Positions 12,108 through 30,863 of a stretch of 64,000 bases of DNA are shown one piece after another. The DNA comes from Pseudomonadota bacterium. Lineage in GTDB: Bacteria; Pseudomonadota; Gammaproteobacteria; Steroidobacterales; Steroidobacteraceae. The position numbers and the translations under genes were made by a program. The notes beneath the pieces were generated by a model that was given only the letters and a program-made list of their open reading frames with translations, had not been told where the DNA came from and did no database searches. The DNA is taken from positions 214 through 64,213 of the forward strand of contig JAEZCN010000191.1 in NCBI GenBank assembly GCA_023433515.1, given 5' to 3'. The first letter of the stretch is position 1. Each line of letters opens with the position of its first letter.

Positions 12108-12117
12108 TCGCGGCTCG

Positions 12118-14327: not shown

Positions 14328-14451
14328 GGGGTAACCGCTTCCTCACTTGGTCAAGGCACAGGTAGTTAAAGCACAGGCGCCGCGTGTTCAGGCTGCATTT
14401 TCGCTGCGAGAGGTCTACTCTCGCCCCTCCCGAGCCCCGGAGGAAGCCCTC

Positions 14452-16578: not shown

Positions 16579-18099
16579 TCAGGCCCGGCTGGCGTCCACG
16601 CTGGCATTGAGCTCCGCCGCGAGTCTTCGCGCCACATCCACAGGCAGATATCGAATGCGAACGCCGGCTGACCTCGCGCCTCCTCCTCCAGCGGTATCCA
16701 CTGTCAGGCTCGCCATGTGCCGGCGCCGGTCGAAAGGTGACGTCGACACGTTCAGCGACTGCACACGGTCGCGCGGCACGATCGTCAACTGGCGTGTCAG
16801 CCAGCCCGACCGGAACAGCAACACGTCGCGCTGCAGCGCCCAGCGCGTGTGCTTCACGTACAGATGCGCATGCATCCACGCGAGTCCAACCGCGATCGGA
16901 ACGGCGAAAACAGCGGCCTCGCGCAGGTACCACCAGGTCGGTCCCACGAAGATCGGAAGGAGCAGCAGGGCGCCGCGCCGGAAAATGCGCGAGCGAGCTC
17001 CTGGTGCGAGCGGTTGCCAGTCCGTCTGCGCGGCGGGATCGAAGACGGGTAGCGCCGCGGCGATCAACGCCGGCGCCGCGGCGGTGGGGCAGACGGGCGC
17101 CAGCCAGCGTGTCTTCATCCGCTCCGGGTTGGGCCGCTCTTCTTCGCCGCCGCCGTCGCCCGCCAGATCCACATCCAGGGAGACTCTGCCAAACAGTCGA
17201 TGCAGCGGCGACTCCGACTGATGCACCGCCTGGATCCGGCGTATCCGCAGCGTGAGGGCGATGCTCGTGAATAGTCCATAACGCGCACGCAGATCCCCGG
17301 CGTGCCGCGTCAGCGTGAAATCGTGCAGCGTTATCAACGCCACCACGACCGAAAGGATTCGTACGGCGAGCAGCGCCGAGACGATCACGAGGAGGGCGAG
17401 CAGAATCTGCATCGCCATCCCGAGCCCTGCGACGCCGCTGAGCGCCGATGAATGCAGCCATTCGTCGATGAACTCGCGATTCACGTCGAAGAAGCCCGCT
17501 TGCTGCATCAATCCGGCGCCGGCGGCCACGAGGATCAGGCCGCGGTTGTCGATCAGTCCGTGACGCACCAGTTCCATCGGCGACAGATGCAGCAGCGGCG
17601 GCTCGTCGGGCGCTTGCGCCGCTTCCGTGGCGGGTTGCGAATCGGCGAACACCCGTTGGCGCATCTCCTGGACCGCGTTCGAGTCCAGCACGCTGATGAG
17701 CGCTTCGGGCTTTCCGCCGGTGGAGGTCTGCACGCGCACCTGTGCGACGTTCAGCAGCCGATGCAGCGGCCCGCGCTCGGTATCGATGTTCTCGATGCGC
17801 GAATACTCGATCTGGCGCACGTTCCGGAATATCACCCCGTCGCGAATCACCAGGCCGCGGGGGCCGAATCCATAGCGAAAGGTCCATTGATGCCACACGG
17901 CGCGTACGAGCATCGCGCCTACGAATACCAGAGCGAGAGGCGTGCCTATCCAGTCGTCGTCGCGGCGCGCGCCGAATAGCAGGAGCACGATGAGCGGGAA
18001 GATCAGTTGCCGCACCGAGCCCGTCAGCGCGAACAGCCAGGACGACCGATGCAATCGCAGTGTCGGCTCGAATTCCGCCGCGCCGCCTTCAGACGCCAC
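16579..18099 (-). CDS. YdbT-like membrane protein with three bacterial PH (bPH_2/DUF304) domains
   Basis: TM hairpins alternate with PH-like modules, e.g. RYGFGPRGLVIRDGVIFRNVRQIEYSRIENIDTERGPLHRLLNVAQVRV. The GTG at 18099 overlaps the ydbS-like stop by 11 nt. The listed start at 18150 would overlap by 62 nt. Confidence 0.8.
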   Translation of the reverse strand: MASEGGAAEFEPTLRLHRSSWLFALTGSVRQLIFPLIVLLLFGARRDDDWIGTPLALVFVGAMLVRAVWHQWTFRYGFGPRGLVIRDGVIFRNVRQIEYSRIENIDTERGPLHRLLNVAQVRVQTSTGGKPEALISVLDSNAVQEMRQRVFADSQPATEAAQAPDEPPLLHLSPMELVRHGLIDNRGLILVAAGAGLMQQAGFFDVNREFIDEWLHSSALSGVAGLGMAMQILLALLVIVSALLAVRILSVVVALITLHDFTLTRHAGDLRARYGLFTSIALTLRIRRIQAVHQSESPLHRLFGRVSLDVDLAGDGGGEEERPNPERMKTRWLAPVCPTAAAPALIAAALPVFDPAAQTDWQPLAPGARSRIFRRGALLLLPIFVGPTWWYLREAAVFAVPIAVGLAWMHAHLYVKHTRWALQRDVLLFRSGWLTRQLTIVPRDRVQSLNVSTSPFDRRRHMASLTVDTAGGGGARSAGVRIRYLPVDVARRLAAELNASVDASRA

Positions 18100-18544
18100 T
18101 GTCGCGATTCTCCGCGAGCAACGCGTCGCGTAACGCGATGGCATCCGCATGCGCGAGGCCGGGTAGTTCGATCTTCGTGTAGCGGCTGCCGGCCGTGTAC
18201 AACTTCAACGTGCCGACACCGAAGCGCCGCTGCAGCGGCCCTTGCGAGACATCCGTGTGCTGGATGCGCGCCCGCGGCAGCGCGATCCTCGACCGCCAGA
18301 GGACGCCGCGCTCGATTGCGATGCCGGTCGCATCGACGCCGAATCGCAGGCGCCGGTAATACGCCTCCGGCCAGACCCAGCTGAGCGTCAATCCGACCGC
18401 GGCAATGAGCAGTGGCACCAACAGACCGGGCGCACCGAATCGGATGACGAGACCGCATGCGCAGACGGTGGCAATCGAGGTCATCAGCAGACCTTGCCAG
18501 CGCCACACGATGATCACGGCACGGTCGACTTGAGAGGTTTCCAT
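18089..18544 (-). CDS. YdbS-like membrane protein with a single bacterial PH domain
   Basis: Two TM helices, then RFGVDATGIAIERGVLWRSRIALPRARIQHTDVSQGPLQRRFGVGTLKLYTAG. It lies immediately upstream of the YdbT-like gene, the classical pairing. Confidence 0.8.
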   Translation of the reverse strand: METSQVDRAVIIVWRWQGLLMTSIATVCACGLVIRFGAPGLLVPLLIAAVGLTLSWVWPEAYYRRLRFGVDATGIAIERGVLWRSRIALPRARIQHTDVSQGPLQRRFGVGTLKLYTAGSRYTKIELPGLAHADAIALRDALLAENRDSGV

Positions 18545-18724: not shown

Positions 18725-19288
18725 ATGGTGGTGGAAACGGCGCAGACGCCAGTGACCGAGCTGCTGGCCCGCAGCCGCGCCGGCGACGCGGGCGCGCTCG
18801 ATGTGGCATTCGCGGCGGTGTACGAGCAGCTCAAGCAGGCCGCGCGCAAACAACTGCGCAAGCAGCGCCGCGCGTTCCAGACCACGGCGCTCGTACACGA
18901 GGCCTGGCTGAAGCTGGCCGGCAACGCCGCATTGGAACCCTCCGACCGCAATCACCTGATGGCCCTTTCCGCCCGTGCCATGCACCACGTGCTGGTGGAC
19001 CATGCGCGCGAGATCCACGCCGCCAAGCGCGGCGGCGGCGAACAGGCCGTGACGCTGACGGACTGCGCGGCGATCCAGCCGCAGGCGGAAGTCGAGGTGC
19101 TGGCGCTGCACGAGTTGCTCGAGGAACTGCGGCGTTTCGATCCGCGCGCCGCGCAGATCGTCGAGCTGCGCTACTTCGGTGGTTACGAGGAACCGGAGAT
19201 CGCCACGCTGCTGGAAGTCAGCGAATCCACCGTGCAGCGCGACTGGCGCCGTACCCGCGCCTGGCTCGCGGCCAGACTTGGGCACTGA
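18725..19288 (+). CDS. ECF sigma factor of the kinase-associated type (Sigma70_ECF / TIGR02999-like)
   Basis: TELLARSRAGDAGALDVAFAAVYEQLKQAARKQL...LVHEAWLKL...IVELRYFGGYEEPEIATLLEVSESTVQRDWRRTRAWLAARL. No anti-sigma gene is adjacent. Its stop TGA is directly followed by the kinase ATG. Confidence 0.9.
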   Translation: MVVETAQTPVTELLARSRAGDAGALDVAFAAVYEQLKQAARKQLRKQRRAFQTTALVHEAWLKLAGNAALEPSDRNHLMALSARAMHHVLVDHAREIHAAKRGGGEQAVTLTDCAAIQPQAEVEVLALHELLEELRRFDPRAAQIVELRYFGGYEEPEIATLLEVSESTVQRDWRRTRAWLAARLGH

Positions 19289-22192
19289 ATGGATACCCAC
19301 CGCGGTCCGCTGGCGATGCGCATCTTCGAGCAGCTCATCGAGCTGTCACCGGAGCGGCGTGCGGCGGGACTCGACGAATTGTGCGCGGACGATGCCGAGC
19401 TGCGTGCGCTGGTCGAAGCCATGCTGGTCGCCGATGCCCAGGCCCAAGAGCCCTTCGGCGGCAACGCCGCGAAGTGGCAAGCGGAACTGCAGGGCCAGTC
19501 CGCGGCGGAGGCAGCGACAAACGCGCAGGTCGGCAAGACGATCGGCGCGTGGCGCATCGTCGGCGAGCTGGGTCGCGGCGGCATGGGCACGGTGTACACG
19601 GTTCAACGCAGCGACGGGGCTTATGCGCAAAAGGCGGCGCTGAAGCTGATCCGCAGCGCCTCCGATTCGCCGGCCGCGCGCGAGCGCTTCGTGCGCGAGC
19701 GGCAACTGCTCGCGCAGCTGCGCCATCCGCACATCGCCACCTTGCTGGACGGCGGCTTCAGCGCGGAGGGCGATCCGTACTTCGTCATGGAATACATCGA
19801 TGGCATGCCCATCGACCAGTGGTGTGACAAACACCAGCTGGGCCTGCGCGAGCGCATCGAACTATTCCTGCAGGCGCTGGACGCGGTGAGCTGCGCGCAT
19901 CGCAGCCTGATCATTCATCGCGACCTGAAGCCATCGAACCTGATGGTTGATGCCGACGGGCGGGTGAAGCTGCTGGACTTCGGCATCGCCAAACAACTCG
20001 ACGGCGCGGAGGCCACGGCCACCAGCGACCGCGCGCTGACCTTCGAATACGCCAGCCCCGAGCAGTTGCACGCCGCGCCCATCACCACGGCCACCGACGT
20101 GTGGCAACTGGGTATCGTGCTGCATCGGCTGCTGAGCGGCGCGCATCCGTTCGGCCTGCAACGCGACACGCCGCTGCCCAAGCAGTTGCAGTTGCTGGAG
20201 CGTGAGCCGGAACCGCTGACGCGCGCGGCGGCGCAGGCTGCGCCTGAACTGGCCGGCTTGCGCGGCGGATTGAGTCCGGAACTGCTGGCGAAGAACTTGC
20301 GCGGCCCGTTGACGCAGATCGTGCAGGGTTGTTTGCGGCGCATGCCGGAAGGGCGCTACGTCAGCGTCGACGCACTCGCCGAAGACTTGCGCCGTTGGTT
20401 GCGTCACCGACCGCTGCGCATCGTGCCACCTACACGCGCGCTGCGATTCCGCCTGTGGTGGCGTCGCAACCTCGTGATGGCCACGGCCGCGTCGCTGGTG
20501 TTGCTGGCCGTGCTCGGCGGCAGCGGCGCGGCGTTGTGGCAGGCGCGCGAGGCGCGGGCGCAGGCCGCCATCGCCGAGCAGCGGCGAATCGAGGCGGAAA
20601 GACAGAGCGCCAACGCGCGCGAGGTGATGGCATTCCTCAACGACACGCTCGCGGCCGCGGCGCCCGAGAACGCGCTCAGCACCGAAGTCAGCGTGCGGCA
20701 GCTGCTCGAACATGCACGCGCCAAGCTCGACGAGCGCGGCGCGGTCGACCCGCAGGTGCGCCAGGCGGTGCAGCGTATGCTCGGTCACCTGCACAACGCG
20801 GTTGGTGAAAAGCTCATCGCGCGGGAACTGCTGGAAGCTGGATTGGATGGGCAAGAGGCGCGCAGCCGCGAGGAAGCATTGGCGCTGGCGGAGGACCACA
20901 CCGTGCACGCCTTCGTCCTCGGCACGATGGATCTGGGCGAGGAGAGCCTGGCGGCGGCCGAACGGGCGGCCGAGCTCCGGCGACGTTTCGCGCCGGACGA
21001 TCCCATGCAGCAGTTCAAGGCGCTGGAAGCGCTCGGATTTGCCCACCATCGAGCCCGCGACGTCGAGAACGCGGAGAAACAATGGCTGCAGGCGATCGAG
21101 CTGGCGAAAGGAATTCCCGATCCCTCCCCGGACGATTTCTCGAGCGTCATCAACGTCTACCAGATGCTGAGCAGGCAGTCGGTTTTTACGGGCGATTTCG
21201 CCCGCGCCCTGCAACTGGCTGAAGAAGGACTGGCCCTTCTCCAGAGTCGCGGCCTTCCGCCGCAGTCACCCTGGCGGTCGGCGCTGCTGCACGCCAAGGC
21301 CAATGCGCTCAGCATCAATGGCGATGCCGCTGCCGCCGAACCACTGCTTCGCGAAGCCATCGCCATCCATACGAAGACTGTGGGCGCCTTCGGCAACGAA
21401 GCAGGCACATTGCATGGCGCATTGGGCATCGTATTGAACGAACTGGGCCGATACCGCGAGGCGGCCGAAGAGGTGGAGCGCGAGCACCAGCTCAATGCGG
21501 CCTCCGTCGAAGCGCCGCTGCAACGAGCGATCAACCTCACCAACCTTGGCGCGATATACGAGAACGCCGGCGACTATCCACGGGCGCTGACATTGTTCGA
21601 GGAAAGTCTCGCCATCCTCGATGAGGGTGGTGTCGGCAAGGAGGAGGCCCGCCGGCGCCAACTGGAGCGCAACTACGCGCGCGGCCTGGCCTTGGCTGGC
21701 CGGTTCGCCGAGGCGGATGCGCTACTGCGCCGGCTGCAGACCGCCGCGCGGCGGCTCGACGGTGAGGATTCGGCAGAATACGCGCTGCTGACCTGGAACC
21801 GCGTGGTGCTGGCGCGGTACAGCGGTGACACCGCCAACGGTCTTCGTTTGCTGGACGAAGCGAAGGCCAAATGGGCCAAACTCGTCCCCGACACGCATCC
21901 CGTGTTCACCCAGGTCCTGCGCTATGGCGCCGCCTTTGCGCGGCAGCGCGGAGACCTCGCCGCGGCGGAGCGCGACCAGCGCGAAGCGGTGCGGCGATTC
22001 GAGGCCGGCGCCGTGCCGGTCAACCTCGCCATCGCCCGCGCCGAACTGGCCGCGGTCCGCTTTGAGCGCGGCGACCGCGCCGAAGCCCGCGCGCTGCTCG
22101 GGCAAGCCATGCCCGTGCTGCGCGATTCAGTGTTGCCGCAGGACGTGAACCGCAAACAGGCCGAGGCGTTGGCGCGCACGCTGGGTGTGTAG
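19289..22192 (+). CDS. Ser/Thr protein kinase with one TM segment and a long TPR-like C-terminal region (967 aa)
   Basis: Hanks motifs: GELGRGGMGTVY, AALKLIR, HRDLKPSNLMV, DFGIAK, YASPEQ. TM segment VMATAASLVLLAVLGGSGAALW. TPR-like repeats run to the C-terminus. Confidence 0.9.
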   Translation: MDTHRGPLAMRIFEQLIELSPERRAAGLDELCADDAELRALVEAMLVADAQAQEPFGGNAAKWQAELQGQSAAEAATNAQVGKTIGAWRIVGELGRGGMGTVYTVQRSDGAYAQKAALKLIRSASDSPAARERFVRERQLLAQLRHPHIATLLDGGFSAEGDPYFVMEYIDGMPIDQWCDKHQLGLRERIELFLQALDAVSCAHRSLIIHRDLKPSNLMVDADGRVKLLDFGIAKQLDGAEATATSDRALTFEYASPEQLHAAPITTATDVWQLGIVLHRLLSGAHPFGLQRDTPLPKQLQLLEREPEPLTRAAAQAAPELAGLRGGLSPELLAKNLRGPLTQIVQGCLRRMPEGRYVSVDALAEDLRRWLRHRPLRIVPPTRALRFRLWWRRNLVMATAASLVLLAVLGGSGAALWQAREARAQAAIAEQRRIEAERQSANAREVMAFLNDTLAAAAPENALSTEVSVRQLLEHARAKLDERGAVDPQVRQAVQRMLGHLHNAVGEKLIARELLEAGLDGQEARSREEALALAEDHTVHAFVLGTMDLGEESLAAAERAAELRRRFAPDDPMQQFKALEALGFAHHRARDVENAEKQWLQAIELAKGIPDPSPDDFSSVINVYQMLSRQSVFTGDFARALQLAEEGLALLQSRGLPPQSPWRSALLHAKANALSINGDAAAAEPLLREAIAIHTKTVGAFGNEAGTLHGALGIVLNELGRYREAAEEVEREHQLNAASVEAPLQRAINLTNLGAIYENAGDYPRALTLFEESLAILDEGGVGKEEARRRQLERNYARGLALAGRFAEADALLRRLQTAARRLDGEDSAEYALLTWNRVVLARYSGDTANGLRLLDEAKAKWAKLVPDTHPVFTQVLRYGAAFARQRGDLAAAERDQREAVRRFEAGAVPVNLAIARAELAAVRFERGDRAEARALLGQAMPVLRDSVLPQDVNRKQAEALARTLGV

Positions 22193-22215: not shown

Positions 22216-22659
22216 TTAGTCGACGAACACCGTCGGTGATCCCTGGATGACCTTGCCAGCAGGCGACGGGTGAGCCACATTTACTGCATCACCGACGCGG
22301 GCTACTGGCTTGCCGCCACCGTTGAGCCGGACCGTCGGGCCTTTAACCTGAGCCATGCTGCCAGCCTGGAGCGTGGCCATCATGTTGCTCTTCAGGAGTA
22401 AATCCGCCCCCGCCTGGATGGTGAGTGCCTGGGCACTCTTGATCGTCAGCGAGTTGCCGTTGATGGTGATGAACGAGCGCAGTTGAGCGTTCTGCTTCTC
22501 GAGCTCGGCGATTCTCTTTTCCATGGCCGCGAGCCGGGTTTCGACGGGGCTTTGAGCGTCAGCCGCCTGCCGGCCACTTGCTTCCCTTGAGACGGCGAAA
22601 ACTCCGGCCAGTATGACGACAGCCATGGTGACTGCAAACGTACGTCCCTTTTTCGACAT
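22216..22659 (-). CDS. Small anchored protein: TM/signal, coiled coil, then beta-helix repeats with a PAAR-like tip (gp5/VgrG C-terminal-like by eye)
   Basis: The ATG at 22659 has a GGAGAGG SD. Sequence: MSKKGRTFAVTMAVVILAGVFAV; ETRLAAMEKRIAELEKQNAQLRSF; SLTIKSAQALTIQAGADLLLKSNMMATLQAGSMAQVKGPTVRLNGGGKPVARVGDAV...GKVIQGSPTVFVD. Confidence 0.6.
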   Translation of the reverse strand: MSKKGRTFAVTMAVVILAGVFAVSREASGRQAADAQSPVETRLAAMEKRIAELEKQNAQLRSFITINGNSLTIKSAQALTIQAGADLLLKSNMMATLQAGSMAQVKGPTVRLNGGGKPVARVGDAVNVAHPSPAGKVIQGSPTVFVD

Positions 22660-22787
22660 GGTTGAAACCTCTCCGCTGATGCGCGCGGCTTGATGATGGT
22701 AGTTAGTCAAATACGCTCTGATTGGTGGCGACATTGAAAGCCTCCGGCTTGAAGTTCATGAAGGTGTTGAGCGACGCGATGCGATCG

Positions 22788-24068
22788 TCACTTGATGAGC
22801 GTCAGCGTGCAGCTCCACGGTTCTGTGATGAGGATCTGGCCGCCGATGACATTGCGGCCCGGCGGCAGGGTGAGCGTGCCGCTGGTCTCGTCCTGGTTGA
22901 GGGTGATGTGGTACGGGCCCTCGCCGATGGCGCCGGAATGTTTCCAGTCCCAGGTGCCGGCTCTCTCGCCGGTGGGTGTGAACCGGAAGGACACGCCGTT
23001 CGTCCGCGCATGGAAAGGTCCATCGACGTCGGGAATTTCGCCTTGCAGCGCGCAACCGCCGATCACATAACCCTTCTTGCAGTTGTTCGCGCTGCGGCGG
23101 ATCTGGTTCATGCGCTGCTCGACGAGTTGCTCGAGCTCATGTTTGGACCATTCGAGGGCCGGGCCGCTCAGCAGCCCGACCACTGGCGTGAGAATGCCGG
23201 CGACCGCGCCGGTCACCGTGTTGACGCCTCGCACTGTGTCGTCGGCGATGATGTCCGCGCGCATCTCGTCGAGCTGTTTCAGGATCTTCTCTTTCTCACC
23301 GGGGGCCCACTGTGCACCGCGCGGATTGCTCTCGATGCACTTGCGCAGTTCGTCGAGTTCCTTGATGCGTTTGAGCGCTTCCCTGGAGAGCTTGCCCAGA
23401 TCATTGGCCGCGTTGGCCACGGTGATCTGCGCGCTGATCCTGCCGCCCAACCTGGCGCCGAAGGTCTTGTTGAGCAGCCTGTCGCGGACTTCGTCGCTGG
23501 CCGTCTCCGAGACCCATCGCTGGAACACCTCGCCGAAGCCGCCGGAGAACTGCTGCGCATGAGCTCTGGGGATGAGCAAGTCGATGAGGTCGAACTCACG
23601 CGTCCGCAGCGCGGGCGGCAGGGCGGAGGCCAGTGTCATGGGGATGTCCGCCTCCGGCACGTAGTAGCGGATCGCGAGTGCGACGCGGCCTGGTTCCACC
23701 GAGGATTCCAGGATCTCTGCCGGTTTGACCTCGCTGGCATCGACCCGGCGCACGCGCAACTCGATGCGCGAAGTGTCGCCCCAGGGATAGGTGAGCACGA
23801 CATGCGCGACGCCCGGCTCTGGGCTGCTGCTATTCCAGGTAGTCAGGGCCAGCACGCGAGCTTCGTCTGGCTCGGCGCCCGCGTCGATCAGCTTCTGCAC
23901 GATGGCCGGATCCGGCGTGCCGTCCGGATTCGGTTCGGGCGCGACGGGAAGTTGCGCTTTCGCCGCGGGTGGAGTCCGATTCTCAGCCGGTGCATTGCCG
24001 CCGCAGCTGGCGAGCACCAGCATCATCGGAGCGAGCAGGGCGATGCGTTTCATCGTGACGCTTCTCAT
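22788..24068 (-). CDS. Uncharacterised lipoprotein, paralog B1 of the duplicated module
   Basis: MRSVTMKRIALLAPMMLVLASCGG (lipobox). The start ATG overlaps the stop of A1 (ATGA at 24065-24068). It has long identical runs with B2. An alternative ATG lies at 24053. Confidence 0.75.
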   Translation of the reverse strand: MRSVTMKRIALLAPMMLVLASCGGNAPAENRTPPAAKAQLPVAPEPNPDGTPDPAIVQKLIDAGAEPDEARVLALTTWNSSSPEPGVAHVVLTYPWGDTSRIELRVRRVDASEVKPAEILESSVEPGRVALAIRYYVPEADIPMTLASALPPALRTREFDLIDLLIPRAHAQQFSGGFGEVFQRWVSETASDEVRDRLLNKTFGARLGGRISAQITVANAANDLGKLSREALKRIKELDELRKCIESNPRGAQWAPGEKEKILKQLDEMRADIIADDTVRGVNTVTGAVAGILTPVVGLLSGPALEWSKHELEQLVEQRMNQIRRSANNCKKGYVIGGCALQGEIPDVDGPFHARTNGVSFRFTPTGERAGTWDWKHSGAIGEGPYHITLNQDETSGTLTLPPGRNVIGGQILITEPWSCTLTLIK

Positions 24069-25195
24069 TTCACCAGCGACTTGAAGACTTCCGCGTTCTG
24101 TTCGATCAGGTCACGCAGCTGGTAGTACTCGCCGCGCCTGGCTTGATTGCCCAGTCGGATGACGATGTATTGCGGCTCGCCGGCCGCCTTGGACTTGTCC
24201 AGGTAGTTCGGGCTCGGTTTGACCGGTACTTGAACGCCGGAGCCAACTTGTGATGCATCGAGGAATTCGTAGCCCGCCTCGTAAGTCATGCGCACGATGG
24301 CCGGCTGCTGCAGCCATGCCGCTGGCTGCTTCAGCAACTGCTGGTAACGGGCAATGGGCTTTTCGTATGTCGTGGCGAGAATGCTGTTGATCGTCGCGTG
24401 ATCGACCGGCTGTCCGGCGCCGGTGTAACCGCGTGTCATGTCGCTGCGTGTGTGCGCCGCGCCGACTTGCAGGATGCCGATCTGCTTGCGCAGGAATTCC
24501 TCGCGGGTCACATAGGCGAAGGGCAACTGACCGCCGCGGGTGAACCAGTAGATGTCGGTGTATTCACCGCGGATATGGAAGTGGCCGTTCTTCGGCTGCG
24601 GCAGGCCATCGACGAGCCATTCGTCCAGCAGCGTGTAGAAGCCGAATTGCGAATCCTCGCCTGTGCCGTCACCGTTCGGGCTGTCCGGGGTGAACTTGTC
24701 GGGCACCCGGTAGGGACCATGGTGCAGGCCGTCGTTGATGGTGACGTAGGCGGAAAAACCATAGTGCCCGTCCTTGAAGAACTTGCCGTTGGACAGGCAG
24801 CCATACGGGTAGCTGAGCACGTGGAAATTCCATGGGTGCATGTTCGCGGGCATTCCGTGATTGCGCGTGAACACGGTGCCGCCGGTGCGGGTCTCGAAAC
24901 CGTTCGGTGCGAAACCGGCGAAGATTGGCTTGATCTTCGCCAGCACCGCGCCCGCGCCAGCGGGGCTGGGAGCGTAAGCCTCATCCTTGCGTGCGGCGGC
25001 GGTGCGACCCACCGCGTTCGCGTCGCAATTGGCCTGCATCTGCGCCAGCGGCACGGCCGGGCCGGAAGGTACCGGCTTGACGTCGGCGGATATGGCGCGG
25101 GAGGCGCCTTGCGAGTGCGCCGCGAGCGGCAGGACGCAGCCGAGGGTAGTTAGTGCCAGTGTGGCGGTGATGGCGAATTTCGTGTCGGGTTTCAT
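24065..25195 (-). CDS. Uncharacterised exported protein, paralog A1 of the duplicated module (376 aa)
   Basis: An internal ATG at 25195 gives MKPDTKFAITATLALTTLGCVLPLAAHSQGA. The upstream 197 codons of listed ORF 24065..25786 overlap B2 and are Arg-rich junk. It is homologous to A2 throughout. Confidence 0.75.
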   Translation of the reverse strand: MKPDTKFAITATLALTTLGCVLPLAAHSQGASRAISADVKPVPSGPAVPLAQMQANCDANAVGRTAAARKDEAYAPSPAGAGAVLAKIKPIFAGFAPNGFETRTGGTVFTRNHGMPANMHPWNFHVLSYPYGCLSNGKFFKDGHYGFSAYVTINDGLHHGPYRVPDKFTPDSPNGDGTGEDSQFGFYTLLDEWLVDGLPQPKNGHFHIRGEYTDIYWFTRGGQLPFAYVTREEFLRKQIGILQVGAAHTRSDMTRGYTGAGQPVDHATINSILATTYEKPIARYQQLLKQPAAWLQQPAIVRMTYEAGYEFLDASQVGSGVQVPVKPSPNYLDKSKAAGEPQYIVIRLGNQARRGEYYQLRDLIEQNAEVFKSLVK

Positions 25196-25215
25196 GGTCT
25201 TCTGCCTTGGCTCGT

Positions 25216-26511
25216 TCATCCGTCGCAGTCGTCGATCTGTGTCCAGACGGCCTTGCCGGGTGGTTGCTGGATGCAGGCGCCCGTCGGGAGACAGACCGTT
25301 CCCTGGTAAGTCGCGGACATCCGGTTCTTGTCGCCGGTGAGCGTGTAAGTGCCGTCGCCGCGGACGCCGCTGTGATTGAAGTTGAATGAGCCGCTGCGTG
25401 CGCTCGAGGGCGTGTGTGTCATCGAGCCGCCGCAAGCGGCGAACGTGAATGGCTTCGTCACGTCGCAGACCTTCCATGGGCCGCGGCAGTCGCCGACGCC
25501 ATCGATCACGTAAGAGTTCTTGTCGCACTCGGGCGCGCTGCGGCGAATCTCGTTCATGCGCTGCTTGACGAGTTGTTCCAGCTCGTCTTGCGACTGCGCG
25601 AGCGCGGGGCCCGTCAGGAAACCGACGATCGGGGTGAGCGCACCGGCCACGACGCCGGTAACGGTGTTCACGCCCCTCACCGTATCGTCGGCAATGATTT
25701 CCGCGCGGGCCGCGTCGAGCTGCTTGAGGATCTTCTCCTTCTGACCGGCAACCCACTGCGCACCGCTCGGGTTGCTCTCGATGCATTTGCGCAGCTCGTC
25801 GAGGTCCCTGAGTCGCTTGCGCGCCTTCTCGGAAAGCTCGTGCAGCTCCTTGCCCGCATTGGCCACGTTGATCGCGGCGCCGACCCGGCCGCCGGCCTTC
25901 GTGCCGAGCATCTTTTCGAGCAGCTTGTCGCGTACTTCGTCACTGGCCGTCTCGGTGAGCCAGCGCTGGAACACTTGCCCGTAGCCGCCGGAGAACTGCT
26001 GCGCGTGCGCGGCCGGGATCAGCAAGCCGATGAGATCGAGTTCGCGCGTGCGCAAAGCCGGCGGCAGCGCGGAGGCGTGCGTCATCGGGATGTCCGCTTC
26101 CGGCACGTAGTAGCGGATCGCGAGGGCTACTCGGCCTGGCTCGACCGACGCTTCCAGGATTTCCGCCGCCTGGACATCGCCGGCATCGACGCGAACGACG
26201 CGCAACTCGATGCGCGAGGTGTCGCCCCACGGGTAGGTGAGCACGACATGCGCCACTCCAGGCTCGGGATTGCTGGCGTTCCAGGTAGTCAGGGCCAGCA
26301 GGCGCGCTTCGTCCTGTTCGACACCCGCGTCGATCAGCTTCTGCACGACGGCCGGGTCAGGCGTGCCGTCCGGGTTCGGCTCGGGCGCGACGGGCTGGCC
26401 CGCACCTTGCGTCGCGGTTTGCGCCGCATCGGGCGTGGTCTTGCCGCTGCAAGCGACGAGGGTCAGCAGCATCGCGGCCAGCAACCCGATGCGTGTCTTC
26501 GCCGCGCCCAT
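25216..26511 (-). CDS. Uncharacterised lipoprotein, paralog B2 of the duplicated module
   Basis: MGAAKTRIGLLAAMLLTLVACSGK (lipobox). The ATG directly abuts the TAG stop of A2 at 26512. The C-terminal ~95 aa are Cys-rich and unlike B1. Confidence 0.75.
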   Translation of the reverse strand: MGAAKTRIGLLAAMLLTLVACSGKTTPDAAQTATQGAGQPVAPEPNPDGTPDPAVVQKLIDAGVEQDEARLLALTTWNASNPEPGVAHVVLTYPWGDTSRIELRVVRVDAGDVQAAEILEASVEPGRVALAIRYYVPEADIPMTHASALPPALRTRELDLIGLLIPAAHAQQFSGGYGQVFQRWLTETASDEVRDKLLEKMLGTKAGGRVGAAINVANAGKELHELSEKARKRLRDLDELRKCIESNPSGAQWVAGQKEKILKQLDAARAEIIADDTVRGVNTVTGVVAGALTPIVGFLTGPALAQSQDELEQLVKQRMNEIRRSAPECDKNSYVIDGVGDCRGPWKVCDVTKPFTFAACGGSMTHTPSSARSGSFNFNHSGVRGDGTYTLTGDKNRMSATYQGTVCLPTGACIQQPPGKAVWTQIDDCDG

Positions 26512-27912
26512 CTACTTCACCAGCGCCTTGAAGACTTCGGCGTTCTGCTCGATCAGATCACGAAGCTGGTAGTACTCGCCGCGCCTGTGCGAGTTCTTCA
26601 TGTAGATGACGATGTATTGCGGCTCGCCGGGCGCCTTGGACTTGTCCAGGTAGTCTGGGTCCGGCTTGATCGGCACGAGCACGCGGGAGTCGATCTTCGA
26701 TTCGTCGAGGATTTCGTAGCTCGCATCCGCCGCGCTCGCGCTCGGACTCAGGATGGCTTTCTGCTGCAGCCATGACACCGGCATCGTCAAGAGCTTCTGG
26801 TAGTTGGCGATGGGCTTGCGGTAGGAGTAGTCGAGAATCGGGTCGATACGCGCGCGGTTGGGTTGCTGGCCGGCGGCGGTGTATGCGCTCTCCTGCCTGC
26901 GCTGCTCGTCGGCCAGGCCGACCTGCAGGATGTCGATCTGCTTGCGCAGGAATTCTCCGCGGGTCACATAGGCGAATGGCAACTGGCCGCCGCGCGTGAA
27001 CCAATAGCTGTCGGTGTATTCGCCAGGAATATGGAAGTACCCGTTCGTCGCCCGCGGCAGGCCGTTCGCGAGCCAGTCGCTGCGCAGGCGGAAGAAGCCC
27101 AGTTTGGCGTCCTGGCTGGTGCCGTCGCCGTTCTCGCTGTTGGGGTCGAAGTCGGGGGGCAGGCTGAATGGGCCTTCACCCATGGAGTAATTGACGTTGA
27201 TGAACGCGTGAAAGCCGTAGTGGGTGTCCTTGAAGAACTTGCCGTTCGAATGGCAGCCGTACGGCAGGGAGCCCACGGCGTAGACCCACGGGCGCATGTA
27301 CGCGGGCTGCAAGGCAGTGACATCGACCGGCAGGCTGCCGCTGGCCTCGGTTTCAAACCCATTCGGCGCGAAGCCGGCGAACACCGGCTTGATCTTCGCG
27401 AGCACCGCCGCCGCGCCGGGCAGGCCTGGATTGAACGCGGGATCCTTGCGCGCGGCCCTGGTGCGGCCCACCGCATTCACATCGCAACTGGCCTGCATTT
27501 TCGCGAGCGGCACGGCGGGGCCGGAGGGAACTGGCTTGATGTCGGCGGGCAGGGCATGGACTGTCGGCGTGGCGGCCTGGGCTGGTGCCGCGTCAGTCAT
27601 CGCCGAACCGGGCGTCGCGTCCGTGTGCGGCACCACGTCGTCAGTCGCGGTGTTCTCCGGCTCATAGGTCTCGACCTTCGCGCCCTTCTTCTTGGCCGCG
27701 CGGATGCACTGCTCGTCGCCGAGGGCACACCGCACCACCTTTCGCGCGGCCTGGTCCGCCTTGTTCTCCACTTCTTCCGTCGCAGTGCGCTTGATCCTGT
27801 CCTTCAGCAGGTCGCCGAGGCTCTGCGCCTCAGCTACATGCGGCACGGCGCAGGCCAAGGTAGCTAGTACCAGCGTGGCGATGGAAGCGATCGTCGTATG
27901 GCGATTCATCAC
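26512..27912 (-). CDS. Uncharacterised exported protein, paralog A2 (has an extra ~95-aa N-terminal segment relative to A1)
   Basis: Signal peptide (M)MNRHTTIASIATLVLATLACAVPHVAEAQ. The track start at 27912 is GTG; the ATG at 27909 has better GGAGAC spacing. It shares GEYTD.YWFTRGGQLPFAYVTR.EFLRKQI and RRGEYYQLRDLIEQNAEVFK.LVK with A1. Confidence 0.75.
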   Translation of the reverse strand: MMNRHTTIASIATLVLATLACAVPHVAEAQSLGDLLKDRIKRTATEEVENKADQAARKVVRCALGDEQCIRAAKKKGAKVETYEPENTATDDVVPHTDATPGSAMTDAAPAQAATPTVHALPADIKPVPSGPAVPLAKMQASCDVNAVGRTRAARKDPAFNPGLPGAAAVLAKIKPVFAGFAPNGFETEASGSLPVDVTALQPAYMRPWVYAVGSLPYGCHSNGKFFKDTHYGFHAFINVNYSMGEGPFSLPPDFDPNSENGDGTSQDAKLGFFRLRSDWLANGLPRATNGYFHIPGEYTDSYWFTRGGQLPFAYVTRGEFLRKQIDILQVGLADEQRRQESAYTAAGQQPNRARIDPILDYSYRKPIANYQKLLTMPVSWLQQKAILSPSASAADASYEILDESKIDSRVLVPIKPDPDYLDKSKAPGEPQYIVIYMKNSHRRGEYYQLRDLIEQNAEVFKALVK

Positions 27913-27942
27913 GGTCTCCGGTTGTGAGGTGGTGCGGAAGGC

Positions 27943-29265
27943 TCAGTTGATCTTCTTCAAGATGCCCTTGAGAAATTTCTTGCCCTTGCTTTCCTTCTGA
28001 CCTTCCTCTTGCGCGGGTTCTTCGTCCGTGGTGTCGGCGTCGGCGCCGTACGAGTCGTCCGTGTCCATGCCCATGCCGCCGAAATCCATGCCGAGCATCG
28101 CGCCGGCGGTGGACTTGGTGCGGATGCGCACGTTCCACTCCGCATTCCACTTCTTCAGTTCTTCTGCAGCGGCGGGTCTCGGCGGCCACACCACGTGGGT
28201 CTCGGGGCCGTAGGCGATCATGCTCAGCATGCTCATTCCGCCCATGCCGCTTTCCGCGCCAGCTCCGTCGCGAGAGGCGAAGATGCCCTTCGGAATCGTG
28301 CAGCTCGTGGCGGTCGGCGGCAGCAGCACTTTCTCCTTCAGCCAGCGGTCGATGTACGAACCCGTCAGGTACTGCTGCAGTCCGTGCCCGGCGCCGGCGC
28401 TCTCGGCGCTGCTCCACAGCACCATGGTGTTCTGGCCCTGCATCGCGATCGCGTTGACGAAGTAGGCTCGTGCGCGATCGACGGTCTGCCAGTTCACCGC
28501 GATGGCATCGGTGAGCTGGCCCTTGGTGCTGAGCGCGATCTTCGGCATGAACTCCGCGTTTCGGCCCAGATCGAACTTCAGCGATTCCGGCACGCCGTTG
28601 CCGGTCATGCGATGGGATCCGGCGAGCAAGGCGCCGTTGGACACGCGCCGACCATCCTTCTTGTTAGGCCACACGGCATAGGCCGGAGTGGCGTCGACGT
28701 CGCGATCAGGTACGAACTTGCCCGGCGTCATGCTGCCGCTGGTCTGCATGGCGCCGCCCGACATCTTCATTTTGAATGTGGTCGGCTGGCCGGCACGCAC
28801 CTTGTCGCCGCAACCCCAGTATTCGAGGATGGTGATCTCGATATCGGGCACCTTTTGTGTGCCACCCTTCGTTTGGGGGGTGGGCTCCGGTGGAGGTGGC
28901 GGCGTCAGCAGCAGAGACTTGCCCAGCTTCAAGCCATCGGGAATCGCGAGCTGCGCCTCCACGCCAGGCTTGAGCTTGTTGTACAGCGCCACGTCGAGGT
29001 ATTGCCCGGACTGCCCCCCGCCGCCGGCATTACCGCGCGCGGTCGGATAACGCATCTCGTTGTTGGCTCCTCCCATCATCCGGCCGGCAAGGCCAGCCAT
29101 CGCGCCCATGTCGGGCATGCCGGAGCTATGCGTGGAAACGTCGATCCAGACCAGCGTTTCGGGGGTTTGCGCCTGGGCGGCGGCGGCAGTCAGGGCCGCC
29201 GAGGATGCGAAGGCAAGCGCGGTGGTCAACGGCGCGAGGCGCCGACGGTTGGGCGAGCGAGGCAT
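27943..29265 (-). CDS. Uncharacterised secreted protein with Met/Gly-rich segments and an acidic-then-basic tail (440 aa)
   Basis: The ATG at 29265 has an AGGAGAA SD. Signal peptide MPRSPNRRRLAPLTTALAFASSAALTAAAAQA. Met/Gly-rich segments: GMPDMGAMAGLAGRMMGG, GMGGMSMLSM, MLGMDFGGMGMD. Tail: DDSYGADADTTDEEPAQEEGQKESKGKKFLKGILKKIN. Confidence 0.7.
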   Translation of the reverse strand: MPRSPNRRRLAPLTTALAFASSAALTAAAAQAQTPETLVWIDVSTHSSGMPDMGAMAGLAGRMMGGANNEMRYPTARGNAGGGGQSGQYLDVALYNKLKPGVEAQLAIPDGLKLGKSLLLTPPPPPEPTPQTKGGTQKVPDIEITILEYWGCGDKVRAGQPTTFKMKMSGGAMQTSGSMTPGKFVPDRDVDATPAYAVWPNKKDGRRVSNGALLAGSHRMTGNGVPESLKFDLGRNAEFMPKIALSTKGQLTDAIAVNWQTVDRARAYFVNAIAMQGQNTMVLWSSAESAGAGHGLQQYLTGSYIDRWLKEKVLLPPTATSCTIPKGIFASRDGAGAESGMGGMSMLSMIAYGPETHVVWPPRPAAAEELKKWNAEWNVRIRTKSTAGAMLGMDFGGMGMDTDDSYGADADTTDEEPAQEEGQKESKGKKFLKGILKKIN

Positions 29266-29426
29266 GACGTTTCTCCTGTGCAGCGGCCACTTTCGGGGCC
29301 ACAGAGGAGTTATCGGGAAATGGCTCGCAGACCCGTCACGCTCATGGCGCAAGGTGCGGTTCGGGAGGAAGGATATGTAAGGAGCCGGAAGACTCGTTAC
29401 GGACTGACGTTCAGAACGCCTGGAAG

Positions 29427-29464
29427 AAAAAAGCCCCTCGCCGGTTTCCCGGCGAGGGGCTTTT
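29427..29464 (-). terminator. Rho-independent terminator, best on the minus strand; bidirectional architecture
   Basis: aaaaaa-gcccctcgccgg-tttc-ccggcgaggggc-tttt: a 12-bp stem. On the minus strand it is followed by TTTTTTCTTCC, 36 nt after the stop of the gene ending at 29500. Confidence 0.8.
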
Positions 29465-29499: not shown

Positions 29500-29838
29500 T
29501 CAGGCCACCGGCAAGTCCACCGACGCGGGCATCAGCCGGCGACGCTGCTCTTCCTGCACCTGCTCGAGCGACAGACGCGTCGCGGCTGCCACCGATTTCA
29601 GAACGGGATGCGATTCGGCACGCGGCAAGGTCAGGCCATGGGCCCGTTCCCACGCGCGAATTCTCGCGCTCGGGGCATTGGCGGTCGACGTCAGGTCGAG
29701 AAGCTCGGTCCTGCGGCGTTCATCCGCTGCCGCGCGCTCCTCGGCCAGTCGAACGCGGTACTCCGCGGGTAGTTCACCCGGGTTGAGAGGCGATACGGTC
29801 ATCGATGCTGGACTCCGATAATCATGGTACGTATTCAT
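29500..29838 (-). CDS. Hypothetical protein (112 aa), last gene of the RRM operon
   Basis: The ATG at 29838 overlaps the stop of the upstream gene (ATGA). Sequence includes RVRLAEERAAADERRRTELLDL...IRAWERAHGLTLPR. It is followed by the terminator. An alternative ATG at 29802 gives MTVSPLN. Confidence 0.55.
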   Translation of the reverse strand: MNTYHDYRSPASMTVSPLNPGELPAEYRVRLAEERAAADERRRTELLDLTSTANAPSARIRAWERAHGLTLPRAESHPVLKSVAAATRLSLEQVQEEQRRRLMPASVDLPVA

Positions 29839-30245
29839 TTACCCACCGCGATCGAGTATTCGATCTGCAAGTCGCAGAGCGTCTTGCCGTGGGGGCCGTG
29901 ACGTTCGCCAGAGCACCGGATGTGTCCTTCCGCATGGTCCGTGCCCTGTGCCGCGATGTCATCGACGTTCGCCGCGAGATTGAGCTCGCCGCTACAGCCC
30001 GCATACGGACACGGGTAGACGAAGTAGGCGCGCGCGGGTGGATGCAACACGATGGATTGCGGTGCCGGTGGTTTGGAAACCTCGTCATTGAATACGAGGT
30101 CGACCCGCAGCGTCGCGAACTGTGGGAACTGCACGCGCAATTCCTTCGCGGCCATGCGATCCCGGCGCTGCCTTTCGAGCCGCAGGTTTCGCGCCTTTTC
30201 AGGACTCAGGGCCGTCAGATTCTTCGCGCCGTTGCGCGGTCTCAT
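29835..30245 (-). CDS. Hypothetical basic/Cys-His-rich protein (136 aa)
   Basis: The ATG at 30245 overlaps the RRM gene stop (ATGA). Sequence: MRPRNGAKNLTALSPEKARNLRLERQRRDR...YPCPYAGCSGE...HAEGHIRCSGERHGPHGKTLC (CX4C...CX12C plus His residues). The rest of listed ORF 29835..30728 is an off-frame overlap of the RRM gene. Confidence 0.55.
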   Translation of the reverse strand: MRPRNGAKNLTALSPEKARNLRLERQRRDRMAAKELRVQFPQFATLRVDLVFNDEVSKPPAPQSIVLHPPARAYFVYPCPYAGCSGELNLAANVDDIAAQGTDHAEGHIRCSGERHGPHGKTLCDLQIEYSIAVGK

Positions 30246-30523
30246 CGGCGCCCGTACCCGCCGCCGCCGCCGCCACCGCGGGGTTTGTCCTGCGCCTCGT
30301 TGACCTTCAGCGGGCGGCCGCCAAAATCCTTGCCGTTGAGCGATTGCATGGCGCGCTGCGCGTCCGCGCCCGACATCTCCACGAACCCGAAGCCGCGCGG
30401 CTGTCCCGTGTCGCGGTCGTTGATCAGAGCGACCTTCTCGACGGTGCCGTGTGCGGCGAAAAGTTCGCGCACGCTGTCTTCCGTGGCGCTGAACGGCAGG
30501 TTTCCAACATAAAGCTTGGTCAA
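30242..30523 (-). CDS. RNA-binding protein with a single RRM (RNP-1/RNP-2) domain and a Gly-rich tail
   Basis: RNP-2 motif LYVGNL, RNP-1 motif RGFGFVEM, tail KPRGGGGGGGYGRR. The TTG start at 30523 lies 6 nt after GAGGAG and gives MTKLYVGNLPF. Confidence 0.9.
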   Translation of the reverse strand: MTKLYVGNLPFSATEDSVRELFAAHGTVEKVALINDRDTGQPRGFGFVEMSGADAQRAMQSLNGKDFGGRPLKVNEAQDKPRGGGGGGGYGRR

Positions 30524-30863
30524 GAGAAACTCCTCGAACGGTGATGTAGATAGCCGGCGCAAATGCGCCGCTCCGATGTGATTGCTTCAGGTGGCGGACT
30601 CGAGGCCGCAACGATGCGTCGGGCGACGCGCGAGCTGGAGCGAAACCGGCTCGGATCACAGGGGGTGCTAAAGGTACTTCAAAATGAGCGTTCCCGCTGG
30701 CTGAATTGCGTTTTTCCAGCGAAATCAACCAACCGGGCGGCGGCCTGCGGTACGGCGGACCGGGTGGGGCGTCCGCTCAGGATGTATGTGCGTTCTGCGA
30801 AGGAAATGCCTCCGTGAACAAATGTCACGGAAGCGCTCGAAAAACTCACGCATTGGTGCCGCG

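Follow-up and report, generated by a model that had tools for sequence, protein, structure and literature searches.

Six consecutive genes on the minus strand of contig JAEZCN010000191.1 (assembly GCA_023433515.1) encode exported proteins, five of which match no described family, and their arrangement raises the question of whether they form one system. We studied them within a stretch of 64 kb of this contig, referred to as the window, together with related loci from other genomes and metagenomes (Table 1). The original prediction saw a single dedicated six-protein system. This view is not supported: A and g1 each occur alone, B occurs without A, and g6 was seen in the closest relatives only. 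Judged from gene order and conservation, the conserved unit is g1, a variable cassette, a Ser/Thr kinase and a sigma factor, not the six genes. As our leading explanation we tentatively propose a conserved Lysobacteraceae locus for which the six genes serve as target operon and as variable cargo, and which may provide an inducible surface or envelope programme for adhesion, antagonism or defence. The regulatory half of this explanation is much better supported than the functional half.

Six genes, four families

All six open reading frames (ORFs) are present at the positions first proposed for them (22216..29265), in the order g1, A1-B1, A2-B2, g6. Orthologs with 82-91% amino-acid identity follow the same order in three related metagenome-assembled genomes (MAGs; L001-3), and the six genes are thus not chance ORFs. 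The count of six proteins stands for the ORFs but not for the families: A1 and A2 are paralogs (60% identical), as are B1 and B2 (66% identical), therefore the six genes represent four families with a tandem-duplicated A-B unit as the core.

The close packing and the insulating upstream terminator were confirmed when the junctions were read directly. The start codon of g1, an ATG at 29265, is preceded by an AGGAGA ribosome-binding site, and a gap of 30 nt holding a GGAGA ribosome-binding site separates g1 from A1. The start of A1 is probably the ATG at 27909, because P0001, a homolog from the database that aligns with 100% identity, has 465 aa. The stop codon of A1 abuts the start codon of B1 (TAG directly followed by ATG). 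B1 and A2 are separated by 20 nt, or overlap in an ATGA if A2 starts at the upstream ATG at 25219, which gives a protein of 384 aa, the length also found in the public gene call on the identical contig. Likewise, A2 and B2 either overlap in an ATGA or are separated by 11 nt, with B2 starting at the ATG of MKR... at 24053; this is the probable true start, B2 homologs beginning with MKR... and the public gene call on the identical contig having 421 aa. A gap of 128 nt lies between B2 and g6, and 23 nt separate the g6 stop codon from that of the convergent kinase gene.

The terminator upstream of g1 (dG -43.4 kcal/mol, z = -7.37) belongs to the preceding gene for a 112-aa protein and insulates the operon. 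On the minus strand inside the operon, a simple scanner, which missed this hairpin, found no terminator-like site. The 112-aa ORF itself (29500..29838, minus strand), which ends at the strong terminator, is without family match and is 92-96% identical in L001-3; further upstream, an RRM-domain RNA-binding protein with a Gly-rich tail is encoded (30242..30562, minus strand; PF00076, E = 9e-21). A prophage or mobile-element origin was rejected, no phage families being found and the window carrying ordinary chromosomal genes.

An ECF43-type sigma factor, its kinase and a candidate promoter

The gene converging on g6 encodes a Hanks Ser/Thr kinase and begins 1 nt past the end of a gene for an extracytoplasmic function (ECF) sigma factor. 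Residues 52-55 of the sigma factor read QTTA, replacing the acidic sigma-2.2 motif (DAED), and it falls into group ECF43 by having no acidic motif and an xTTA with a phosphorylatable Thr. The xTTA in sigma-2.2 is the hallmark of ECF43, in which the acidic RNA-polymerase-contact motif is missing and activation occurs via Thr phosphorylation by the neighbouring Hanks kinase, as in EcfK/PknS of Xanthomonas citri and EcfP/PknT of Vibrio parahaemolyticus (PMC13147305, PMC8999054). The kinase of the window has an N-terminal extension of ~89 aa, a Pkinase domain (residues 90-361, E = 8.5e-44), one hydrophobic transmembrane-like segment (LVMATAASLVLLAVLGG) following it and a C-terminal region of ~550 aa with tetratricopeptide repeats (TPRs; TPR_12 matches). 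No anti-sigma factor gene was found between or beside the two genes.

A candidate ECF-type promoter lies ~45 nt upstream of the g1 start codon. Its strict form, TGACGG-N16-CCGATA (TGACGG-N16-CCGATAAC), and its core TTTCCCGATAAC each occur once in the window. ECF promoters typically have a -10 element with a CG. A scan for sigma-70 promoters gave none in the region, and the motif itself was discarded as a sigma-70 promoter, as its spacing and hexamers do not fit. With the same spacing, the window-type motif is found upstream of g1 in L001-3 and upstream of an adhesin gene divergent from the sigma gene in three metagenomic loci (L007/8/9). Pseudoxanthomonas suwonensis (L017) has a variant, TGTCCTGT-N15-YGCATA (CGCATA form), in 4 copies in 21 kb (0.00 expected). 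All four are in sense orientation and precede g1, two genes inside the cassette and the gene divergent from the sigma gene. The variant also precedes g1 in Luteimonas saliphila (L019) and a lone g1 in P. daejeonensis (L011), and g1 of Lysobacter solisilvae (L010) has a looser version. The consensus is of the type TGWCSKGY-N15-CGMATA. We infer that the motif may be the promoter recognised by the adjacent sigma factor; if the sigma factor does recognise it, g1 would be the core regulon member and the cassette a variable extension. Throughout the Lysobacteraceae loci the motif links g1, internal cassette genes and genes for trimeric autotransporters or other surface proteins, and could define an ECF43 regulon by sequence alone.

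Constant flanks around a variable cassette

The whole arrangement is kept in L001-3 (~85% identity), and the synteny that had been expected in related genomes is lost beyond these relatives. The expected co-occurrence with an ECF sigma/kinase pair was borne out, the cluster and the pair standing together wherever the flanks are readable (the window, L001-3, L007/8, L009, L017, L018 and L019). The flanks are constant, with identities of 48-74% for g1, 56-73% for the kinase and 62-88% for the sigma factor, and kinase orthologs (56-73% identity) hold the same position in L007, L009 and L017. Between g1 and the kinase-sigma pair, genes are freely exchanged, the slots being filled by A, B, a third lipoprotein family (C), DUF2272 and beta-propellers. 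The cassette changes through duplication in tandem, through replacement of genes and through exchange of immunoglobulin (Ig)-like C-terminal domains.

Placement of the block differs as well: it stands beside thrABC in L009 and L012 and beside an frmRAB-like trio in L017-19. The genes rpmI-rplT-pheST and infC-thrS normally form one tight cluster. In L007 (3190..19505) the block of g1, cassette, kinase, sigma factor and adhesin is inserted between these two groups, and the block from g1 to the adhesin appears to relocate as a unit.

Is the association incidental? The six genes could be unrelated periplasmic or outer-membrane neighbours, arisen by local duplication beside a housekeeping g1, with a sigma/kinase pair that regulates something else. 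This would suit the wide distribution of g1, which is often alone, the ability of A to stand alone, the negative profile-profile comparisons and the fact that no functional link between the families emerged. We nevertheless consider it rather unlikely: the order g1-cassette-kinase-sigma recurs in at least four chromosomal settings and at least two named genera besides the window's lineage, a shared promoter motif ties g1 to genes inside the cassette and to the gene divergent from the sigma gene, and in L007 the whole block, g1 included, lies between infC and rpmI.

The opposite possibility, that all six proteins build one apparatus at the surface or across the envelope, g6 being the needle, is suggested by the tight same-strand packing with translational coupling, the export of every product, the spike-like g6 and the full synteny in the three ~85%-identical genomes. 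It sits poorly with the gene content of the relatives. A occurs alone in L004-6, next to unrelated genes; B occurs without A in L007 and L017 (and in L012, whose contig stops inside the B gene); A occurs without B, next to a different lipoprotein family, in L009, and is absent from L007, L017, L018 and L019. Moreover, g6 is absent outside the clade and g1 is monocistronic elsewhere (stand-alone copies in L. solisilvae and P. daejeonensis), two of the supposed parts are recent paralog pairs, and there is no ATPase, channel or secretin-like component, which makes such a machine very unlikely.

Several features of the region around the sigma gene and g1 vary between loci. Divergent from the sigma gene are proteins of 1300-1560 aa (L007 14960..18838, L009 18223..21359, L017 17273..21392); that of L007 has collagen-like GPQ repeats and is a trimeric autotransporter of the YadA type, to which those of L009 and L017 are homologous. 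Two NosD/beta-helix proteins take the adhesin position in L. saliphila. In the window, a triple bPH_2 (bacterial PH domain) membrane protein (16579..18150, minus strand) and a TPR protein (14347..16131, plus strand) are encoded upstream of the sigma gene, where sister genomes hold the adhesin gene. Directly after g1, a secreted DUF2272 protein is encoded in L007 (5694..6548) and L019 (11275..12150), the two copies being 76% identical.

Table 1. Operon, regulatory genes and signals in the window, and gene content and motif sites of related loci
Locus	Feature	Position	Strand	Description
Window	ECF43-type sigma factor	18725..19288	+	PF07638, E = 4e-43
Window	PknS-like Hanks Ser/Thr kinase	19289..22192	+	967 aa; converges on g6
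Window	g6	22216..22659	-	147 aa, spike-like protein
Window	B2	22788..24068	-	426 aa, lipoprotein (LASC), B1 paralog, type-2 C-terminal domain
Window	A2	24065..25195	-	376 aa, A1 paralog without N-terminal extension
Window	B1	25216..26511	-	431 aa, lipoprotein (LVAC)
Window	A1	26512..27912	-	466 aa, secreted, family A, extra N-terminal segment
Window	g1	27943..29265	-	440 aa, secreted, conserved first gene of the locus
Window	Candidate ECF-type promoter	29309..29338	-	TGACGGGT-N15-CGATAAC (also written GTGACGGGT-N15-CGATAAC)
Window	Intrinsic terminator	29427..29464	-	Perfect 17-bp GC-rich hairpin and T-run
L007	Motif site	14887	+	
L009	Motif sites	6585, 18149	+	
L011	Motif site	9944	+	
L017	Motif sites	5260, 8296, 9941, 17197	+	
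L019	Motif site	9938	+	
L007/L008 (metagenome)	Gene content			g1, DUF2272, 613-aa lipoprotein, 498-aa B-like, 424-aa B, convergent kinase-sigma pair, divergent YadA-type trimeric autotransporter
L009 (metagenome)	Gene content			g1, 619-aa lipoprotein, A, A, 558-aa lipoprotein, kinase-sigma pair, adhesin
L017 (Pseudoxanthomonas suwonensis complete genome, CP011144)	Gene content			g1, 553-aa lipoprotein, 458-aa NHL-like, 463-aa B, PQQ-type propeller, kinase-sigma pair, adhesin homolog
L018 (metagenome)	Gene content			g1, 589-aa and 560-aa lipoproteins, kinase-sigma pair
L019 (Luteimonas saliphila)	Gene content			g1, DUF2272, 561-aa lipoprotein, kinase-sigma pair

Exported proteins without described relatives

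Heuristic signal analysis and hydropathy found export signals on all six products, in agreement with the proposal that every one of them is directed to the envelope. B1 and B2 have lipoboxes (LVAC followed by S and LASC followed by G); by the E. coli rule, S and G at position +2 suggest sorting to the outer membrane. Signal peptides of the signal peptidase I type were detected on g1, A1 and A2, and g6 has one N-terminal hydrophobic segment that is either a signal peptide or an anchor. The statement that none of the proteins belongs to a nameable family holds for g1, A1, A2, B1 and B2, which gave no match in Pfam, NCBIfam, PHROGs or PADLOC, but not fully for g6, which has sub-threshold PAAR matches. 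In sequence and profile searches of the PDB, g1 and A had no match, and those of B stayed below significance (best E = 0.054).

The g1 family comprises 737 homologs in Lysobacter, Luteimonas, Pseudoxanthomonas and Thermomonas, all unnamed or annotated as hypothetical and without Pfam domains; none was found in viral contigs. By this distribution the window belongs to the Lysobacteraceae. The g1 protein of the window has segments rich in Gly and Met, two Cys that are invariant and a C-terminal tail of basic character (KKFLKGILKKIN). That the first protein is Met-rich is correct as regards these segments, but g1 is the conserved core of the locus and not an idiosyncratic member. Its Met content (5.2%) and the conserved segments seen in the alignment (GMPDMG...RMMGG and MLGMD...GM) are the sole support for reading the operon as one of periplasmic copper handling. 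We consider this extremely improbable, since g1 resembles neither CopA/PcoA, CusF and CopC nor any other metal-binding family, the locus has no metal-efflux or metal-sensor gene, and the other five proteins are not rich in Met or His. The FrmR-like neighbour in L017-19 is part of the frmRAB-like trio for formaldehyde detoxification.

Family A is very rare (17 clusters among 5.8 billion proteins), and its alignment has 86 invariant columns. Profile-profile comparisons show it to be unrelated to g1 and to B. A1 differs from A2 by an N-terminal extension of ~70 aa (LGDLLKDRIKR...C..GD..C). Directly after the signal peptide, a Lys/Arg-rich amphipathic motif (LGDLLKDRIKR / LGGLFKRTVER / LDALFKRTAKR; A1 residues ~30-75, window 27700..27830) is common to the long A proteins and two unrelated beta-propellers of P. 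suwonensis (L017 8419..9795 and 11447..13093), which share 43% identity with each other across 54 aa at the N-terminus. In g1, the conserved tail KKLLKGLLRNF (window 27946..27980) resembles the motif, the resemblances beyond the propeller pair being seen by eye only. The motif might serve in sorting or in binding a partner, such as the TPR domain of the kinase.

The lone A proteins of L004, L005 and L006 (SRP344714) are 55-76% identical to those of the window and are encoded on high-GC contigs from MAGs labelled Vicinamibacteraceae, Bifidobacteriaceae and Solibacteraceae; assignment of these contigs to three different phyla suggests mis-binning. L004 and L005 share visibly similar neighbours, of the AraC type and the short-chain dehydrogenase/reductase family. 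A more distant kinase lies within 1-6 kb of A in L005 and L006, and L005 also has an ECF sigma factor.

B lipoproteins and exchange of their C-terminal domains

Only 7 close relatives of B were found; a full profile search with HMMER, covering 1.84 billion representatives, raised the number to 84 (E <= 1e-3), reaching down to ~20% identity among those aligned. A Pfam scan of 40 members of this superfamily gave no family. An AlphaFold2 (AF2) model of B1 built with 7 sequences had a predicted local distance difference test (pLDDT) score of 42 and was too poor for use, while one built with 40 sequences reached a pLDDT of 72.9 and a predicted template modelling score (pTM) of 0.62. In the latter, the Pro-rich tether is disordered, residues ~45-190 form an alpha/beta domain, residues 191-325 are a helical region, and a Cys-rich C-terminal beta domain of type 1 has ~8 strands (329-431; window 25219..25527). 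The Gly-rich hydrophobic segment that had been pointed out within a helical region is residues 281-305 (window 25597..25671), placed by the model at the turn between two long predicted helices. A structural check of the model with Foldseek had been proposed, and against PDB and BFVD it gave no significant match (best E = 0.02-0.04, TM-score < 0.2). Identification of B1 as an alpha-pore-former (ClyA, XaxAB/YaxAB, Hbl/Nhe) or colicin-type protein was rejected, as no pore-forming toxin occurs among the Foldseek PDB matches; the best of these, colicin E3 (E = 0.037, TM-score 0.08), is not significant.

At its C-terminal end, the B profile has weak matches to repeats of proteins that hold many HYR, He_PIG, Big or PKD domains, therefore the C-terminal domain is probably Ig-like. 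The C-termini of B1 and B2 are divergent and represent two types of ~95-aa Cys-containing domain, one ending in ...TWTKIDDCD and one with YVIGGC...CTLT, which are exchanged between B-type lipoproteins and the unrelated C lipoproteins of 553-619 aa. The type-2 C-terminus of B2 is 65% identical to those of the otherwise unrelated lipoproteins L009_558 and L018_589.

Such exchange raises the question of polymorphic effectors. The B- and C-type lipoproteins could be membrane-inserting effectors acting through the hydrophobic helical hairpin and delivered by vesicles or at the cell surface, with proteins encoded nearby, A among them, in a helping or protective role and g6 aiding membrane piercing. 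Hypervariable gene content between conserved flanks, C-terminal domains swapped between unrelated N-terminal bodies and the hydrophobic Gly-rich segment of B1 at a predicted helix-turn-helix are all consistent with this, as are the control of an anti-amoeba type VI secretion system (T6SS) by the homologous regulatory pair in X. citri and the DUF2272 protein in the same slot in L007 and L019, a putative peptidoglycan hydrolase from its weak CHAP-like similarity. Against it, no toxin, immunity or pore-former family or fold was found in Pfam, NCBIfam, PHROGs and PADLOC or with Foldseek on B1, and the swapped C-termini look Ig-like, as expected of modules for binding or scaffolding and not of toxin domains with catalytic activity. 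A regular toxin-immunity pairing of genes is missing, and A is secreted and absent from four loci. We regard an effector array as unlikely. A polymorphic toxin system proper was rejected, the swapped C-termini resembling Ig-like repeats, toxin and immunity matches absent and the downstream genes inconsistent between genomes.

A spike-like last protein

The description of the last protein as spike-like was upheld by octad repeats, a coiled coil, a PAAR repeat and PDB matches to spike or tip components. After an export signal or anchor (residues 1-28), g6 has a heptad coiled coil of ~3.5 heptads (residues 37-62; window 22474..22551) and six octad beta-repeats (residues 63-114; window 22318..22473), namely SFITINGN / SLTIKSAQ / ALTIQAGA / DLLLKSNM / MATLQAGS / MAQVKGPT; its hydrophobicity autocorrelation peaks at lags 2 and 8 (0.31 at lag 8). 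Residues 115-147 (window 22219..22317) form one PAAR repeat, KPVARVGD...GSPTVFVD, with the C-terminus GGGKPVARVGDAVNVAHPSPAGKVIQGSPTVFVD. The family matches of g6 were all weak: Pfam PAAR_motif (E = 1.7e-4; 22.2 bits vs a 27-bit cut-off), phrog_281 PAAR (7e-5, below threshold), and in NCBIfam TssI_Fran (1.7e-3) and PAAR (4.4e-3; 17.1 bits vs a 124-bit cut-off). As a PAAR protein in the sense of PF05488 or NF033420, g6 is sub-threshold, residues 108-147 matching about one repeat and not three.

A PDB search with a profile of six g6 sequences returned two kinds of match only, designed coiled coils and spike or tip components. They include a PAAR protein (4jiv_D, E = 0.014, residues 111-147), the beta-helix fragment of T4 gp5 (4jiw_A, 4jiv_A and 6p22_A, residues 65-113), SalCis10, phi92 gp138 and the VgrG C-terminus; those to the T4 gp5 helix, a Pvc8 chimera and the VgrG C-terminus are weak (E = 0.1-4.5). 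Spike-like was accepted as the best description of g6 because these individually weak matches are thematically uniform. From this domain order, g6 is probably a small trimer of a coiled coil and a gp5-type beta-helix, capped by three PAAR repeats, one per chain.

Neither the locus and its relatives nor the large ORFs sampled across the window yielded VgrG, T6SS or contractile-system genes, and searches of phage genomes, metagenome contigs and viral contigs for g6 relatives gave coiled-coil noise only. One candidate relative (L013) was dismissed as an unrelated coiled-coil protein on an AT-rich contig. In two sister MAGs g6 is tandemly duplicated (L001 15957..16953 and L003 15231..16229), the paralogs being ~62-69% identical to the window copy, and L002 has a gap of 770 nt (15170..15943) that is a possible site of a decayed second g6. 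Sequence searches confine families A and g6 to a very narrow lineage.

Taken furthest, g6 might be a new Sec-exported, membrane-tethered homotrimeric mini-spike, made up of a coiled coil, a gp5-like triple beta-helix and a PAAR-like cone to which each chain gives one repeat, that acts without a contractile machine and, with polymorphic lipoproteins combining a membrane-inserting hairpin and a swappable Ig-like targeting domain, forms a weapon that depends on contact or a device that breaches outer membranes, induced by the ECF43/kinase pair and found in Lysobacteraceae alone; this is highly speculative and we give it only a slim chance.

A proposed inducible surface programme

How would an inducible surface or envelope programme, the explanation we tentatively favour, operate? 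By analogy, the transmembrane kinase would sense a periplasmic or envelope cue via its TPR domain and, as in EcfK/PknS and EcfP/PknT, would phosphorylate the sigma factor at the QTTA Thr. The sigma factor would then bring RNA polymerase to TGACGG-N16-CCGATAAC upstream of g1, a motif that is present and conserved and whose dependence on this sigma factor is presumed. With junctions as tight as those observed and no terminator-like site found between the genes, a single transcript would give g1, the two A-B pairs and possibly g6. The products, to judge from their signals, would leave the cytoplasm by Sec, and B1 and B2 would be lipidated and probably placed in the outer membrane.

From cassette duplication, replacement and domain swapping, the Ig-like modules and the probably co-regulated adhesin of sister genomes, we infer an inducible surface programme. 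The pattern of cassette evolution fits that of proteins meeting changing external partners, and in sister genomes the same candidate promoter would drive a trimeric autotransporter adhesin. The precedent of EcfK/PknS, where an anti-amoeba weapon is controlled, would by analogy point the same way.

Several observations weigh against this explanation. Family A, alone in L004-6, does not need the locus of g1 and the kinase-sigma pair. Conversely, g1 of L010 and L011 has no sigma/kinase pair nearby, yet a related motif is retained. In the window no adhesin gene lies beside the sigma gene, and every family match of g6 is below curated thresholds. No product has a catalytic or binding family match, and the terms adhesion, antagonism and defence draw only on the evolutionary pattern and on analogy.

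Relation to known systems and significance

A close comparison is EcfK/PknS of X. citri, an ECF43 sigma factor and a Hanks kinase controlling an anti-amoeba T6SS (PMC13147305, PMC8999054). Like the present locus, it belongs to the same bacterial order, has a PF07638 sigma factor with xTTA and no anti-sigma gene, and lies adjacent to its target genes, which in the present locus are presumed ones. By motif and layout, following the published descriptions, PknS also resembles the kinase of the window in its N-terminal extension, kinase domain, transmembrane-like segment and periplasmic TPRs, at 833 aa compared with 967 aa. The cargo differs: here it consists of Sec-exported proteins and lipoproteins of no described family, not a T6SS. 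EcfP/PknT of V. parahaemolyticus, an ECF43 system with a polymyxin-resistance regulon, shares the TTA-motif sigma factor, the adjacent kinase and an envelope-related response, but has another cargo and inducing signal, and there is no sign of polymyxin resistance or lipopolysaccharide modification at the locus.

With the gp5/VgrG-PAAR spikes of phages, T6SSs and extracellular contractile injection systems, g6 shares, by its sequence pattern, predicted octad beta-repeats and a PAAR repeat (PVARVGD...GSPTVFV). Unlike them, it consists of one chain of 147 aa that carries a Sec signal or anchor, a coiled coil and one PAAR repeat instead of three; it has no oligonucleotide/oligosaccharide-binding (OB) fold, gp27-like or toxin domain, and sheath, tube and baseplate genes are absent nearby. 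The B lipoproteins recall Slam-dependent lipoproteins of the TbpB/fHbp type in that a lipobox and a long Pro-rich tether are present and diverse lipoproteins carry a beta-rich module of ~8 strands at the C-terminus, whereas the central helical hairpin of B with its hydrophobic tip has no counterpart there. A Slam-type identity for B was rejected, as neither Foldseek nor sequence comparison showed similarity to TbpB, fHbp or HpuA; no Slam (DUF560) gene is present among the called genes of L007, L009 and L017-19.

The regulatory module is of a known kind, and the cargo, the candidate promoter consensus, the hypervariable cassette and the exported PAAR-like mini-spike are undescribed in the libraries and ECF43 literature compared. 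The families g1, A, B and C are sequence orphans, and B, as modelled, is a fold orphan too at the available resolution. The locus adds four exported families without sequence relatives of assigned function, of which B is, on its predicted structure, also without a structural relative. A PAAR-like, Sec-exported mini-spike, if true, would be an unusual spike architecture outside contractile systems.

Activation of ECF43 sigma factors by Ser/Thr kinases has been established recently as a mode of signalling, for which the literature compared works out two cases, one regulon for the T6SS in X. citri and one for polymyxin resistance in Vibrio (PMC13147305, PMC8999054). The locus described here would be a third, different and apparently widespread ECF43 regulon, in the Lysobacteraceae. 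Since it is conserved in cultured strains, the candidate promoter consensus is directly testable in P. suwonensis CP011144 and Luteimonas saliphila, and should the predicted promoter prove right, sequence alone could serve to map the regulon across whole genomes.

Lysobacteraceae are known for predatory and antagonistic lifestyles. That the cassette is hypervariable while its flanks are conserved suggests an interface shaped by an arms race in this family.

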